Positions 1,988 through 6,390 of a stretch of 64,000 nt of DNA are shown piece by piece (positions within the stretch are counted from its first letter, which is position 1; each line of letters opens with the position of its first letter). The notes beneath the pieces were generated by a model, which worked only from the letters and a program-made list of their open reading frames with translations, searched no databases and had not been told where the DNA came from. Source of the stretch: Candidatus Aenigmatarchaeota archaeon (GTDB lineage: Archaea; Aenigmatarchaeota; Aenigmatarchaeia; CG10238-14; SpSt-28); NCBI GenBank assembly GCA_038997165.1, contig JAWBAK010000001.1, positions 485,320 to 549,319 of the forward strand, written 5' to 3'. Position numbers and translations under genes: made by a program.

Positions 1988-2410
1988 ATGCCAGGAGAAT
2001 TTGCTGCAAGAAAATTGATAAAGAATAGAAAAAAATTTAGATGGAGTAAGTATGATTATAAATCTAGAGTTTTAGGTTTATGGAAAATGGATCCATTAGA
2101 AGGAGCACCACAAGCAAGAGGAATTGTAATTGAAAAGAGAGTTGTTGAACAAAAAAGACCCCATTCTGGATTAATAAAATGTGTAAGAGTTAAATTGATA
2201 AAAAATGGAAGAGAATTGACAGCTTTTGTTCCAAAAAGTGGAAGTATTAATTTTATTAATGAGCATGATGAAGTAATTGTTGAACCATTAGGAGGAGCGC
2301 AAAAAGGTCCAATTGGAAGTATGTGGGGAATAAGATATAAAGTTATCGCAGTTAATGGTGTATCTTTGGATGCAATAAGAAAAGGTAAAAAGCAGAAGCC
2401 AGCAAGATGA
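1988..2410 (+). CDS. rps12: 30S ribosomal protein uS12
   Basis: [43 protein letters not shown]. Confidence 0.97.
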
Positions 2411-3003
2411 GCGAACTAAAATTATTCGGTAAATGGGATTGGAACGTTGAAGTAAAAGATATTGGATTAAAAAGATATATAAATCTAAAACCTTGTATTA
2501 TTCCTAGAACATATGGAAGATATAGTCAAATAAGATTTGGTAAAGCAAATATGAATATAGTAGAAAGATTAATTACTAAGATGATGGTACCTGGACATAA
2601 GGGTAAAAAACATTTAGTTTCTTCAGCTAGATGTGTAGGAAAAACAGAAAAAATTATAAAAATAGTAAAAGAAGTTTTTGAAATAATTGAGAAAAAAACT
2701 AAGAAAAATCCTATAGAAGTATTGGTAAGAGCTATAGAAAATGCTGCACCATTAGAAGAGCCAATATCTTATCAAGTTGGAGGAATTATTGCTAGAACTG
2801 CTGTTATAGTTTCTCCGCAAAGAAGAGTTGATTTAGCGTTAAGAAATATTGTAAATTCTTGTTATAGAAGAAAAGTTGGTTTTACTAAAATGTCTGAACT
2901 TTTAGCAGAAGAAATAATTGCTGCTGCTAATAACGATATTTCGAAAAGTTATGCATTAAAAGAGAAAGAAAGAATAGAAAAAGAAGCTGAAGGTGCTAAA
3001 TAA
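2407..3003 (+). CDS. rps7: 30S ribosomal protein uS7
   Basis: [38 protein letters not shown]. Confidence 0.97.
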
Positions 3004-3793
3004 TTTTTTCTAATATTTCTCTTTGTTTTTCAGAAACTTTTTTAACAATATTTTCTAAATCTCTTGTATAGTGAATTATTAATTCTTTTCCTACTCTTCC
3101 CTGTAGCAAATCGATTTCATGCGATCTTAAATTATCAAAGAAACTTTCGAACGCCCTTCTAAAATCATATGGTTTAATATTATATTTTTTTAAATTTTTC
3201 CAATAACTTAGTTTTGATTTATATGCAATTTTTATATATTCAATGGCTTTTTCGTTTAAAATTGTTATAAAAACTTTTTTTGTCTTTCTTATTAATAATA
3301 GTTCGAAAACATAGGCATCATATATTTTTTGTTTTTTAATTTTTTCAAAATTTTTTATAAAATAAATTAGTTCATGTGTTCTTAATCCTGTTAATAGATG
3401 TAAAATTGTAGTTGCTTTTAATTTTTTTGGAAAATATTTAATTTTTTCAAGCAGTTCATCTTTATTAATTTTTTCTTCGAGTATTTTTGGAATTTTTGGT
3501 ATATACCAGCTAATGTTTGCTTTTTTTCTTAGTTCATTAAATTTTTTATAATAAATATCTACATCATTTAATGCATCTAAGAATTTTGAATATGCTGCTA
3601 ATGCCTGTAAAATATGTTTTTTTAAAGTTTTTTTATTTTCAGTAATTTTCTTAAATTCTATTGAAAAATCAACAGCATTTAAATTTAGTAAATATGAGTA
3701 TTTTTTTGCATAGTTAACTAAATTGTTAATATGAGTTTTATTAGTGCATTTTAAACTTAGAAATTCTTTAAATTTGTTCCAATCTATTTGCAT
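2996..3793 (-). CDS. Tyrosine recombinase/integrase, SSV1-integrase-like catalytic domain
   Basis: LLTGLRTHE (R), KTKK (K), YDFRRAF (R), IDLLQGR, IIHY (Y) in tyrosine-recombinase order. Confidence 0.8.
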   Translation of the reverse strand: MQIDWNKFKEFLSLKCTNKTHINNLVNYAKKYSYLLNLNAVDFSIEFKKITENKKTLKKHILQALAAYSKFLDALNDVDIYYKKFNELRKKANISWYIPKIPKILEEKINKDELLEKIKYFPKKLKATTILHLLTGLRTHELIYFIKNFEKIKKQKIYDAYVFELLLIRKTKKVFITILNEKAIEYIKIAYKSKLSYWKNLKKYNIKPYDFRRAFESFFDNLRSHEIDLLQGRVGKELIIHYTRDLENIVKKVSEKQREILEKII

Positions 3794-3825
3794 AAATTTT
3801 TAATTTTTATTTTCTAAAAAATATA

Positions 3826-4071
3826 ATGGAAGAGAGAATATTAAGAATAAACTTAAGAAAAGAATTGATTAAAAAACCAACATGGAATAGAAAAAAATTA
3901 TTAATGTTAAGATTAAAAGAAAAATTAAAAAGGATTTTAAAAGTTGATGAAATTAAAATAGGTAAAAATTTAAACGAATTTATTCAAAGACATAGCCCGA
4001 AAAAATTAACTTATAAATTTACTTTAAGAATTGAAAAAGAAGATAATATAGCAAAGGTTGATCTTGCATGA
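3826..4071 (+). CDS. rpl31e: 50S ribosomal protein L31e
   Basis: ERILRINLR...IKIGKNLNEFI; conserved L31e-aIF6 linkage. Confidence 0.85.
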   Translation: MEERILRINLRKELIKKPTWNRKKLLMLRLKEKLKRILKVDEIKIGKNLNEFIQRHSPKKLTYKFTLRIEKEDNIAKVDLA

Positions 4072-4736
4072 AATACGAGCTTATAAATTATAATGGCGAT
4101 TCAAATATTGGTATTTTTTTAAGAACATCCGAAGACATAACTTTAGTTCCTAAAAATATTGATAAAAAAATTACTGAAAAAATAGAAAAAATTCTTAAAA
4201 CTGAAATTATTGAATGTAAAATTTGGGATTCATATTTACTTGGAATATTTTCGTGTTTAAATTCTAATGGATTAATTTTACCAAAAACAATTTTTGATAA
4301 TGAATTTAATTTTTTTAAATCGTTAGATTTAAATATTGGAATTATTGATTGCGATTATAATGCTATTGGAAACTTAATCCTTTGTAATGATTATTCTGCA
4401 ATTGTAAGTCCATTAATTGATAAAGAAAGCTTAAAAATAATTAGAGATGTTTTAAATGTTGAGGTTATTGTTAGAAAAATAATGAAAAATAATTTGGTTG
4501 GTTCTATGGCTTATGTAACTAATAAGGGAATTTTATTTAATAGAAATATAAATGAGGATGAAGCAAAAGAAATTAGTGAAATATTTAAAGTGAAAAGATA
4601 TGGTGCAGGAAGTGTAAATATGGGAAATATTTATGTTTCTGTTGGTTTAATTGCAAATTCTAAAGGAATAATATTTGGAGAAAAAACTAGTCCTTATGAA
4701 ATTCAAATAGCATTAGAAGCTTTTGATTTTATTTAG
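4068..4736 (+). CDS. eif6: Translation initiation factor aIF-6
   Basis: SNIGIF, AIGNLILCND, GSVNMG, LIANSKG, TSPYE. Confidence 0.93.
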   Translation: MKYELINYNGDSNIGIFLRTSEDITLVPKNIDKKITEKIEKILKTEIIECKIWDSYLLGIFSCLNSNGLILPKTIFDNEFNFFKSLDLNIGIIDCDYNAIGNLILCNDYSAIVSPLIDKESLKIIRDVLNVEVIVRKIMKNNLVGSMAYVTNKGILFNRNINEDEAKEISEIFKVKRYGAGSVNMGNIYVSVGLIANSKGIIFGEKTSPYEIQIALEAFDFI

Positions 4737-4878
4737 TATATGTATATTTGAGGAAAAAATATATATTAGTGATTTAAAATATATTATAGGGCTTGTTCCG
4801 TCATTGTTTCGAGAGAGCATTTGCTCTATGAAGATGAGAAACAATATCCTACAAGCCTATAGTATCAGATGCCTTAAT

Positions 4879-4915
4879 GGCATCTGGTGATAGAGAAAAA
4901 GTTGTAGTGGTAATT
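4879..4915 (+). other. 5' strand of the 16S pre-rRNA processing stem with bulge-helix-bulge
   Basis: ggcatctggtgatag-agaa-aaa-gttgtagtggtaatt pairs with 6395-6431 and forms a canonical 3-4-3 BHB. Confidence 0.9.
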
Positions 4916-6390
4916 CTGGCTGAACCCGCCAGAGGGGGCGGCTATCCGGGTCAGGCTAAGCCATGCGAGTCGTGAGGGGAAAGCCCTCGGCGCACTGCTG
5001 AGTAATACCACCTCAACCTACCCTACGGTGGGGGATAATCCCGGGAAACTGGGGCTAATACCCCATAGGAGAGGGATTCTGGAAGGACCCTCTCCGAAAG
5101 CTATTAGCAGCTTAAAGCTGCTAATAGCGCCGTAGGATGGGAGGTGGTCCTATCAGGTAGTTGGGGGTGTAACGGACCCCCAAGCCTAAGACGGGTAGGG
5201 GCCGTGAGAGCGGGAGCCCCCAGATGGGCTCTGAGACATGAGCCCAGGGCCTACGGGCCGCAGCAGGCGCGAAACCTTCCCAATGCGCTAACGCGCGAGG
5301 AGGTGACCCGGAGTGCCCTGGCTCTGCCAGGGCTTTTGCCCAGTGTTAGAAGGCTGGGCGAATAAGGGGTGGGCAAGACCGGTGGCAGCCGCCACGGTAA
5401 TACCGGCGCCCCAAGTCGACCCCGCGATTATTGGGCCTAAAGCGCCCGTAGCCAGGCTGGTAAGTCTCTCGTTAAATCCCATAGTAAACTATGGGATTGC
5501 GAGAGATACTGCCAGCCTTGGGGCCGGGAGAGGCCGGCAGTACTCCCAGGGTAGGGGTGAAATCCTTTAATCCTGGGGGGACTACCAGTGGCGAAGGCGG
5601 CCGGCTGGAACGGTCCCGACGGTGAGGGGCGAAAGCTGGGGGAGCAAAAGGGATTAGATACCCCTGTAGTCCCAGCCGTAAACGTTGCCCGCTAGCTGTC
5701 GGAGTGGCTTAGAGCCACTCCGGTGGCGAAGGGAAGCCGTTAAGCGGGCCGCCTGGGGAGTACGCCCGAAAGGGTGAAACTTAAGGGTATTGGCGGGGGG
5801 GCACACAAGGGGTGGGTTGTGCGGTTTAATTGGATTCGACACCGGGAATCTTACCCGGGGAGACGGCAGGATGAAGGTCAGGCTGAAGACCTTACCAGAC
5901 GAGCCGAGAGGTGGTGCATGGCTACCGTCAGCTCGTACCGTGAGGCGTGCCGTTAAGTCGGTTAACGAGCGAGACCCGTGCCCCATGTTGCTACTCGCAG
6001 CTTCGGCTGCGAGGCACTCATGGGGGACTGCCCGCGATAAGCGGGAGGAAGGTACGGGCGACGGTAAGTCCGTATGCCCCGAATCCCCGGGGCCACACGC
6101 GCAACACAATGGGCGCTACAAAGGGATGCCACCCCGAAAGGGGGAGCAAATCCCCTAAAAGCGCCCTTAGTTCGGATCGAGGGCTGTAACTCGCCCTCGT
6201 GAAGCCGGAATCCCTAGTAGGCGGGGTTTAGCAAACCTCGCCGAATACGTCCCTGCCCCTTGCTCACACTGCCCGTCACGCCAACCGAGTGGAGCTCCTG
6301 TGAGGGCCGAAAGGCTCGAACAGGAGCTCCGCGAGGGGGGCGAAGTCGTCACAAGGTAGCCGTGCGGGAACGTGCGGCTGGATCACTCAG
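4913..6390 (+). rRNA. rrs: 16S rRNA (archaeal, divergent; not followed by 23S)
   Basis: ATTCTGGCTGAACCCGCC start, GGATTAGATACCC, 530 loop, AAGTCGTCACAAGGTAGCC, GGATCAC end; GC-rich island; 3' end approximate. Confidence 0.98.

Follow-up and report, generated by a model that had tools for sequence, protein, structure and literature searches.

The locus described here raises the question of whether changes in the protein and rRNA parts of a decoding centre, found side by side in one archaeal genome, arose together or one upon the other. The window, by which we mean the whole stretch of 64,000 nucleotides that was analysed (Candidatus Aenigmatarchaeota archaeon, assembly GCA_038997165.1, contig JAWBAK010000001.1, positions 485,320 to 549,319 of the forward strand), carries the gene for the ribosomal protein uS12 (140 amino acids (aa); 1988..2410, + strand) and, at a distance of 2.5 kb on the same contig, the gene for 16S rRNA (4913..6391, + strand; Rfam RF01959, 1428 bits). 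An initial annotation had described two altered uS12 loops and a G527A change in the 16S rRNA as normally near-invariant, spatially adjacent positions that had changed together to give a lineage-specific decoding site. Our analyses point to a different relationship, in which an altered packing of the uS12 loops, common to several phyla of the DPANN archaea, probably allowed a later change at G527. E. coli numbering is used throughout, uS12 having been aligned to the E. coli rpsL record and 16S rRNA to the E. coli 16S record.

Altered residues in the uS12 and 16S rRNA of the window

Relative to E. coli rpsL, the uS12 of the window shows the replacements N45H, A47G, R49I, D88S, L89M, and P90W together with Gln41; R49I and Gln41 are additions to the changes initially listed. 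The first loop (Q41 K42 R43 P44 H45 S46 G47 L48 I49; 2150..2176, + strand) has PHSG in place of the canonical PNSA, with Pro44 and Ser46 retained, and its KRPHSG motif lies at 2153-2170, within the span first reported (about 2152-2170). The second loop, correctly placed from the outset at 2315..2329 (+ strand), reads G-S88-M89-W90-G91 instead of the canonical G-D-I/L-P-G, and the codon for Trp90 is found at 2324-2326. The canonical N45-R49-D88 network is absent from this protein (H45, I49, and S88), and Trp occupies the place of the canonical Pro90. In comparison to the canonical uS12 of archaea and eukaryotes (RPS23; TIGR00982, PF00164; PDB 4v6u/6sw9, 9qf5, 9e71), the window protein has the same fold and operon position and shares K42, P44, S46, G91, and R93, whereas Asn45, Arg49, Asp88, and Pro90, which are kept in both of the PDB alignments inspected, are all gone. 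Gly47 is shared with the uS12 of 4v6u/6sw9, which reads PNSG, and the statement that nearly all homologs have PNSA was accordingly too strong.

The altered protein is a recognizable and single-copy uS12. It scores above the archaeal-family cut-offs (190.8 vs. 140.2 bits for TIGR00982; 196.1 vs. 196 for NF003254), gives one tblastn match in the genome, and its stop codon is overlapped by the start of the uS7 gene (2407..3003, + strand), which provided the second marker for the trees described below. An AlphaFold2 model (predicted local distance difference test score 87.2, predicted template modelling score 0.72) retains the uS12 fold, and its top Foldseek matches are archaeal uS12 proteins (E 2e-18, TM about 0.75). 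Because strands 43-54 and 62-70 of this model flank the first loop, positions 41 and 49 are placed on opposite sides of it, where they would be in contact with each other.

In the 16S rRNA, A at position 5394 (+ strand) corresponds to E. coli position 527, as the initial annotation held, and its partner C522 (5389) is unchanged. A second change in the 530 loop, C518G (5385, + strand), is an addition to the earlier list. The monitoring bases G530 (5397, + strand), A1492, and A1493 (6343..6344, + strand) are unchanged, and the 530-loop pseudoknot (505-507 with 524-526) is intact by inspection, GGC at 5372-5374 being complementary to GCC at 5391-5393. A search of E. coli with the 530-loop sequence of the window gave no match. 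The spatial adjacency of the altered sites is borne out by solved ribosomes (PMC7550191, PMC4224418, 10.1101/098871), in which the C522-G527 pair lies beside the uS12 loop (10.1101/098871) and G527 adjoins the uS12 Asp (PMC7550191).

These changes are genuine and assembly error is excluded. Metagenome bins can hold foreign 16S contigs, and four genomes of this kind were met in our sample (L115 in G018, L181 in G397, L639 in G908, and L590 in G909), in which the 16S contig mismatches the uS12 of the bin and was treated as mis-binned. The chance that the window owes its state to an assembly or binning error is nonetheless negligible: both genes are single-copy in the assembly of 651,930 bases and lie on one contig, and the window bases agree with same-genus assemblies and with contigs from other sequencing runs, which has already refuted this explanation. 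Three congeners (G001, G004, and G005) have the same bases and gene arrangement. GSMWG is present in all five uS12 sequences recovered from the six same-genus genomes, the first loop reading PHSG in four and PYSG in one, and three of these genomes have an assembled 530 loop, each time identical to that of the window. The A at 5394 has further support in a contig of run X8 across 5300-5480, which differs by one other letter and at no listed difference, and in a contig of run X6 over 5300-5416, which shows zero differences and extends just 22 letters past 5394; run X12 yielded no contig there. Short contigs of RNA run X17 cover the 530 loop; this loop is common to other archaea and nothing is concluded from them.

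Coordinated change within uS12

A total of 395 distinct full-length uS12 sequences fall into three classes with respect to the two loops, viz. Arg49 with Asp88 (98 sequences), Arg41 with Asp88 (4), and neither Arg nor Asp (293). Asp88 is thus present if and only if Arg is found at position 49 or 41, with no exception among the 395. In a solved ribosome the D88 carboxylate forms hydrogen bonds with N45 and R49, which ties the two loops together (PMC4224418); hence, the residues that covary in our sequences are known partners of one network. The change of the two loops is thus a coordinated one.

The altered state is widely spread. Among the 103 uS12 sequences of the window's own phylum that were read (one of them, G404, of unknown rank), Asp88 is lost in 99, Gly47 is present in 101, Arg49 is lost in 100, and Trp90 is present in 55, position 90 being otherwise occupied by V (22), H (13), P (6), and other residues (7). 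Asp88 is lost in all 72 paired Micrarchaeota, and PHSG with Ser88 is found in each of the 48 Micrarchaeota read that have G527; the uS12 proteins of Huberarchaeum and the Nanopusillaceae are likewise without Asp88. Within the phylum of G885 (Iainarchaeum), 41 genomes were searched and 30 uS12 sequences read, of which 10 have Gln41, His45, and Ser88 and 20 have Ala41, Arg49, and Asp88, so that both states occur on the same backbone in one phylum, with Trp90 in 29 of the 30. A site that the initial annotation had called lineage-specific is thus shared with Micrarchaeota, Huberarchaeum, Nanopusillaceae, and part of the G885 phylum, and its carriers come from records of hot springs, groundwater, and acid mines. 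When the Gln41/Gly47 pattern was scanned for, 120 of about 320 stretches were listed; 80 of these belong, by their titles, to Micrarchaeota, Aenigmatarchaeota, one Iainarchaeum, and other archaea. The homologous-protein search returned 25 matches, none reaching other DPANN phyla, and Altiarchaeota, Undinarchaeota, and Nanohaloarchaeota lie outside the sample. For bacteria, the motif with a codon of the Ser/Thr/Cys class at position 88 gave 0 matches in metagenome_contigs vs. about 110,000 with Asp. In two genomes, G928 (C1:172238-174178) and G016 (C106), uS12 is interrupted in an intein-like manner inside one long frame (654 and 615 aa, respectively).

The history of this state was examined on a tree of 97 rows built from uS12, with the motif columns masked, and uS7. 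This tree requires a minimum of 8 changes of state for Asp88 and of 7 for Arg49, and probable reversals are seen in G031 and G089. A single origin of all Asp-less uS12 was rejected in topology tests under LG+G4 (approximately unbiased test, p 2.3e-6 for 40 concatenated rows and p 1.8e-6 for 45 uS12-only rows). Several separate gains, one early gain followed by reversals, or gene transfer among certain groups may lie behind this distribution.

Dependence of A527 on the uS12 state

A GTDB-wide scan for A527, covering 120 of about 180 stretches, listed 115 DPANN-type archaeal 16S sequences, 1 divergent bacterial 16S-like sequence, and 4 that are not rRNA; 107 of the 120 pass a downstream 16S check and 8 are archaeal 16S sequences with a variant or cut flank. 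The records belong to Micrarchaeota, Nanoarchaeota, Aenigmatarchaeota, Huberarchaeum, and other archaea, and 4 that are titled otherwise carry Micrarchaeota-type flanks. The states of uS12 and the 530 loop were then paired in 199 genomes, from which duplicates and the four foreign-16S genomes noted above had been removed. None of the 43 genomes with A527 has Arg49, all 43 have Gly47, 1 has Asp88, and 2 have Asn45. All 36 genomes with Arg49 have G527. However, 118 of the 156 genomes with G527 are also without Asp88. On 68 rows, parsimony places 8-13 gains of A527, every one on branches lacking Arg49; such branches account for 53-60% of the length at risk (p roughly 0.001-0.006).

These counts bear directly on the proposal that A527, His45/Gly47, and Ser88/Trp90 compensate each other and arose together in this lineage. 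The sites are adjacent, and all of the changes co-occur in the window and in the three congeners with both genes. However, G527 is retained in 118 of the 160 genomes lacking Asp88 and in 93 of the 104 with exactly His45 and Ser88, 21 of the 25 paired genomes with His45, Ser88, and Trp90 keep both C518 and G527, and the 48 Micrarchaeota noted above combine PHSG and Ser88 with G527. In independent pairs, A527 and the loss of Asp88 do not change together (median p 0.5; the pair tests are underpowered). What survives of the supposed co-occurrence of A527 with Ser/His is its one half: A527 is never found with Arg49 and once with Asp88, while the uS12 changes occur freely without A527. A joint origin is already refuted in the direction in which uS12 would imply A527, and we regard it as very improbable overall. 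Instead, the dependence in these genomes is one-way, in that A527 depends on the altered uS12 and the altered uS12 does not depend on A527.

A second alternative is a general relaxation of selection, under which A527 and the uS12 changes merely accumulate in the same fast-evolving, reduced DPANN genomes. The freedom with which position 90 varies in Aenigmatarchaeota is in keeping with this, as are the further changes at conserved sites of the window 16S rRNA (U13C, U17A, U20C, A915G, A918U, A1394U, C1400U, and A1499C) and its missing anti-Shine-Dalgarno tail. In contrast, the phylum sample around Nanopusillus, which served as a control for fast evolution, consists of equally small genomes and keeps G527 in 110 of 111 matching genomes (261 searched), and among 15 of its G527 genomes that were read Arg49 is kept in 13 and Asp88 in 15. 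The altered state is, moreover, itself constrained, the Arg/Asp rule being without exception, and when position 527 was left free (N) in the search pattern, solely G or A was found there in true 16S rRNA among the matches listed. Relaxation on its own is therefore an unlikely explanation, though one with some weight.

The partner of position 527 is informative as well. C522 is kept in the window, and in Nanopusillaceae U522 occurs with A527, which fits a retained 522-527 pair. A search for a 16S column that follows the uS12 state found none in 9 vs. 36 genomes, the best difference being 0.66. One apparent carrier of A527, G032, was rejected: A527 appears in its spliced projection, and the 16S sequence (L117, contig C19) actually has an insertion before G527, for which it was scored as G. 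This hairpin-like insertion of about 34 nucleotides, which separates C526 from G527 in the 530 loop, is probably a 16S intron. Other 530-loop variants were seen in Aenigmatarchaeota (L126-L129, L364-L368), viz. G524A (genus g2, among others) and G515U (families f21, f24, and f25); in family f21 the exact 530-loop pattern gave 0 matches in 13, and 5 genomes that were re-read have G515U with C518 and G527. A518 occurs in some Micrarchaeota, and helix 44 changes beside A1492/A1493 (1404-1407, 1494-1497) in Micrarchaeota, Huberarchaeum, and the G885 phylum (L145, L185, L441, L742-L745).

C518G as a separate variant

C518G occurs with G527 in Micrarchaeota, Aenigmatarchaeota, Thermococci, Archaeoglobi, and Methanodesulfokora. 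The 530 loops of the last three groups have G518 as in the window, but with Arg49, Asp88, and G527 retained: these are present in all 17 non-DPANN C518G genomes read (one of which, G903, may carry a foreign 16S), and 8 of the 17 have plain PNSA. A coupling of C518G to Gly47 was considered and rejected, since PNSA is found in 8 of 83 G518 genomes, Gly47 in 101 of 113 C518 genomes, and the pair test gives p 1. C518G is thus a separate tolerated variant that is independent of the uS12 state. A metal ion mediates the contact of C518 and Pro44 with the wobble codon base, and Ser46 contacts A1492 (PMC5041475, PMC4736104); both of these uS12 residues are kept in the window.

Proposed explanation and its relation to known systems

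The reading that we consider probable starts from the altered residues, the Arg/Asp rule, and the broader distribution of the protein state compared with A527, all of which are observed, and takes the hydrogen-bond network and the C522-G527 neighbourhood from the literature. Loss of the Asn45-Arg49-Asp88 set would uncouple the usual tie between the two decoding-site loops of uS12, and an uncharged packing probably replaces it, polar at Gln41/Ser88 and hydrophobic at Ile49/Met89/Trp90. The uS12 change would have come first and the rRNA change later: the uS12 face that meets the 522-527 pair would no longer require G, so that A527 would be permitted and not required, a case of permissive epistasis. 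Decoding would still proceed via the normal A1492/A1493/G530 mechanism. Loss of diphthamide was considered as a driver in this genome and rejected, Dph1/2 being present and the EF-2 loop intact.

Several observations weigh against this explanation. In G031, A527 occurs with Asp88 and Arg41, both genes lying on one contig, and Asp88 is therefore not what forbids A527; Asn45 is kept in two A527 genomes. The p values for the A527 gains are only rough because the sample was picked by an A527 scan and is DPANN-heavy, and independent pairs for Asp88 and Gln/Lys41, which run in the same direction in 5 of 5 cases, reach p 0.06 in an underpowered test. The uS12-only tree unites Micrarchaeota, the G885 phylum, and Aenigmatarchaeota (Shimodaira-Hasegawa-like approximate likelihood ratio test, 89) and does not reject a clade of Micrarchaeota with the Ser88 members of the G885 phylum (p 0.30), and for this reason the direction of the uS12 change is unsure. 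The many conserved-site changes in the window 16S rRNA fit general relaxation. Trp90 occurs together with Asp88 in 20 distinct uS12 sequences, so that the new packing is unneeded for tolerance of Trp90 and does not explain it; a role of the altered state as a suppressor of Trp90 was rejected on the same grounds.

Three known systems concern the same sites. In Thermus thermophilus, P90W in rpsL is an engineered streptomycin-dependent allele, with stalled initial selection and a distorted A1492 as its effects (PMC3884664); Trp90 is shared with the window, where it is the wild type, as it is in 55 of the 103 Aenigmatarchaeota-type and 29 of the 30 G885-phylum sequences. The P90L suppressor C1490U (PMC3884664) is absent from the window, which has C at 1490. 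In bacteria, m7G527 and beta-methylthio-Asp88, formed by RsmG and RimO, line one pocket, and an unmodified state of these positions is associated with streptomycin resistance (PMC7550191, PMC13602947). The same two positions are affected in the window, but there a different base and a different residue stand in their place, which leaves neither modification possible as such. Lastly, RPS23 K60R of thermophilic archaea is another case in which the KQPNSA region varies naturally among archaea, described as an isolated change in a region otherwise treated as nearly invariant (PMC8570412); the window, in contrast, keeps that Lys and alters six other positions. The main text of PMC8570412 contains no DPANN group names, and its supplements may show DPANN sequences.

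A third alternative to the permissive order of events is adaptive retuning, i.e., selection for another accuracy/speed set-point or for escape from ribosome-targeting compounds or host factors. The recurrence of a multi-residue uS12 switch and the behaviour of T. thermophilus P90W speak for it, as does the fact that archaeal K60R raises accuracy once moved to eukaryotes (PMC8570412). However, the altered state spans habitats as different as hot springs, groundwater, and acid mines, G031 and G089 are probable reversals, and no 16S column separates the protein states; retuning is accordingly improbable. A bolder form of our explanation, which we put forward as tentative and rather doubtful, holds that several DPANN phyla have a second natural decoding-centre architecture, in which a repeated coordinated switch of uS12 (positions 41/45/47/49/88) dispenses with a network retained throughout bacteria, releases G527 from constraint, tolerates the Trp90 that is crippling in Thermus, and gives these symbionts a measurably different accuracy-speed set-point.

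Further features of the locus

The source assembly has a G+C content of 24.5% and a completeness of 94.5%, and the window is located on its 549-kb contig. The closest relatives of the window uS12 are from Aenigmatarchaeota (89-99% identity), and the sequencing runs that contain the window stretch are mainly hot-spring metagenomes. The gene order is rpoA'', L30e, nusA, uS12, uS7, a minus-strand open reading frame (ORF), L31e, IF-6, 16S, and tRNA-Leu. The minus-strand ORF between uS7 and L31e (2996-3793, - strand, 265 aa) has a weak PHROG match (E 0.053) and no match in Pfam or NCBIfam; we take its motifs to resemble those of a tyrosine recombinase.

Of the additional 16S changes, U13C, U17A, and U20C lie in the 5' strand of the central pseudoknot (4920..4927, + strand) and A915G and A918U in its 3' strand (5785..5788, + strand), where they are complementary to U20C and U17A, respectively. 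The U17A/A918U swap is limited to the window's genus among the loci read, the U20C/A915G swap is common in its order, and U13C is present additionally. A1394U, C1400U, and A1499C (6264, 6270, and 6350) lie near the P site, and A1394U is again found in the window's genus only, among the loci read. In bacteria, A523C, U13C, and A915G are streptomycin-resistance alleles, and archaea are largely insensitive to streptomycin. The 3' end of the 16S rRNA (6380-6392) reads GATCACTCAG, without the anti-Shine-Dalgarno CCTCC, and words resembling Shine-Dalgarno sequences are not enriched upstream of 469 long ORFs (GGAGG 0 vs. 1 in the control window).

Significance

No published account of the altered uS12 state or of A527 was found in a search of CC-licensed PMC papers and bioRxiv, supplements aside; new here are the rule that links Arg and Asp, the recurrent switches of the uS12 state, and the finding that A527 is nested within the altered state. 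The 515F primer site presumably spans positions 518 and 527, in which case changes at both would leave these lineages under-represented in amplicon surveys; Nanoarchaeota-adapted 515F primers reportedly accommodate G518 and A527 already. The PNSA loop, Asp88, Pro90, and G527 are regarded as universal to the proofreading site, and whole phyla do without them. Close relatives on either side of the uS12 switch constitute natural ordered intermediates (Arg41 with Asp88, then Gln41 with Ser88, then A527), which allow the contributions of the N45-R49-D88 network and of G527 to fidelity to be tested, and a structure is within reach because the carriers include named Nanopusillaceae and Micrarchaeum genomes.

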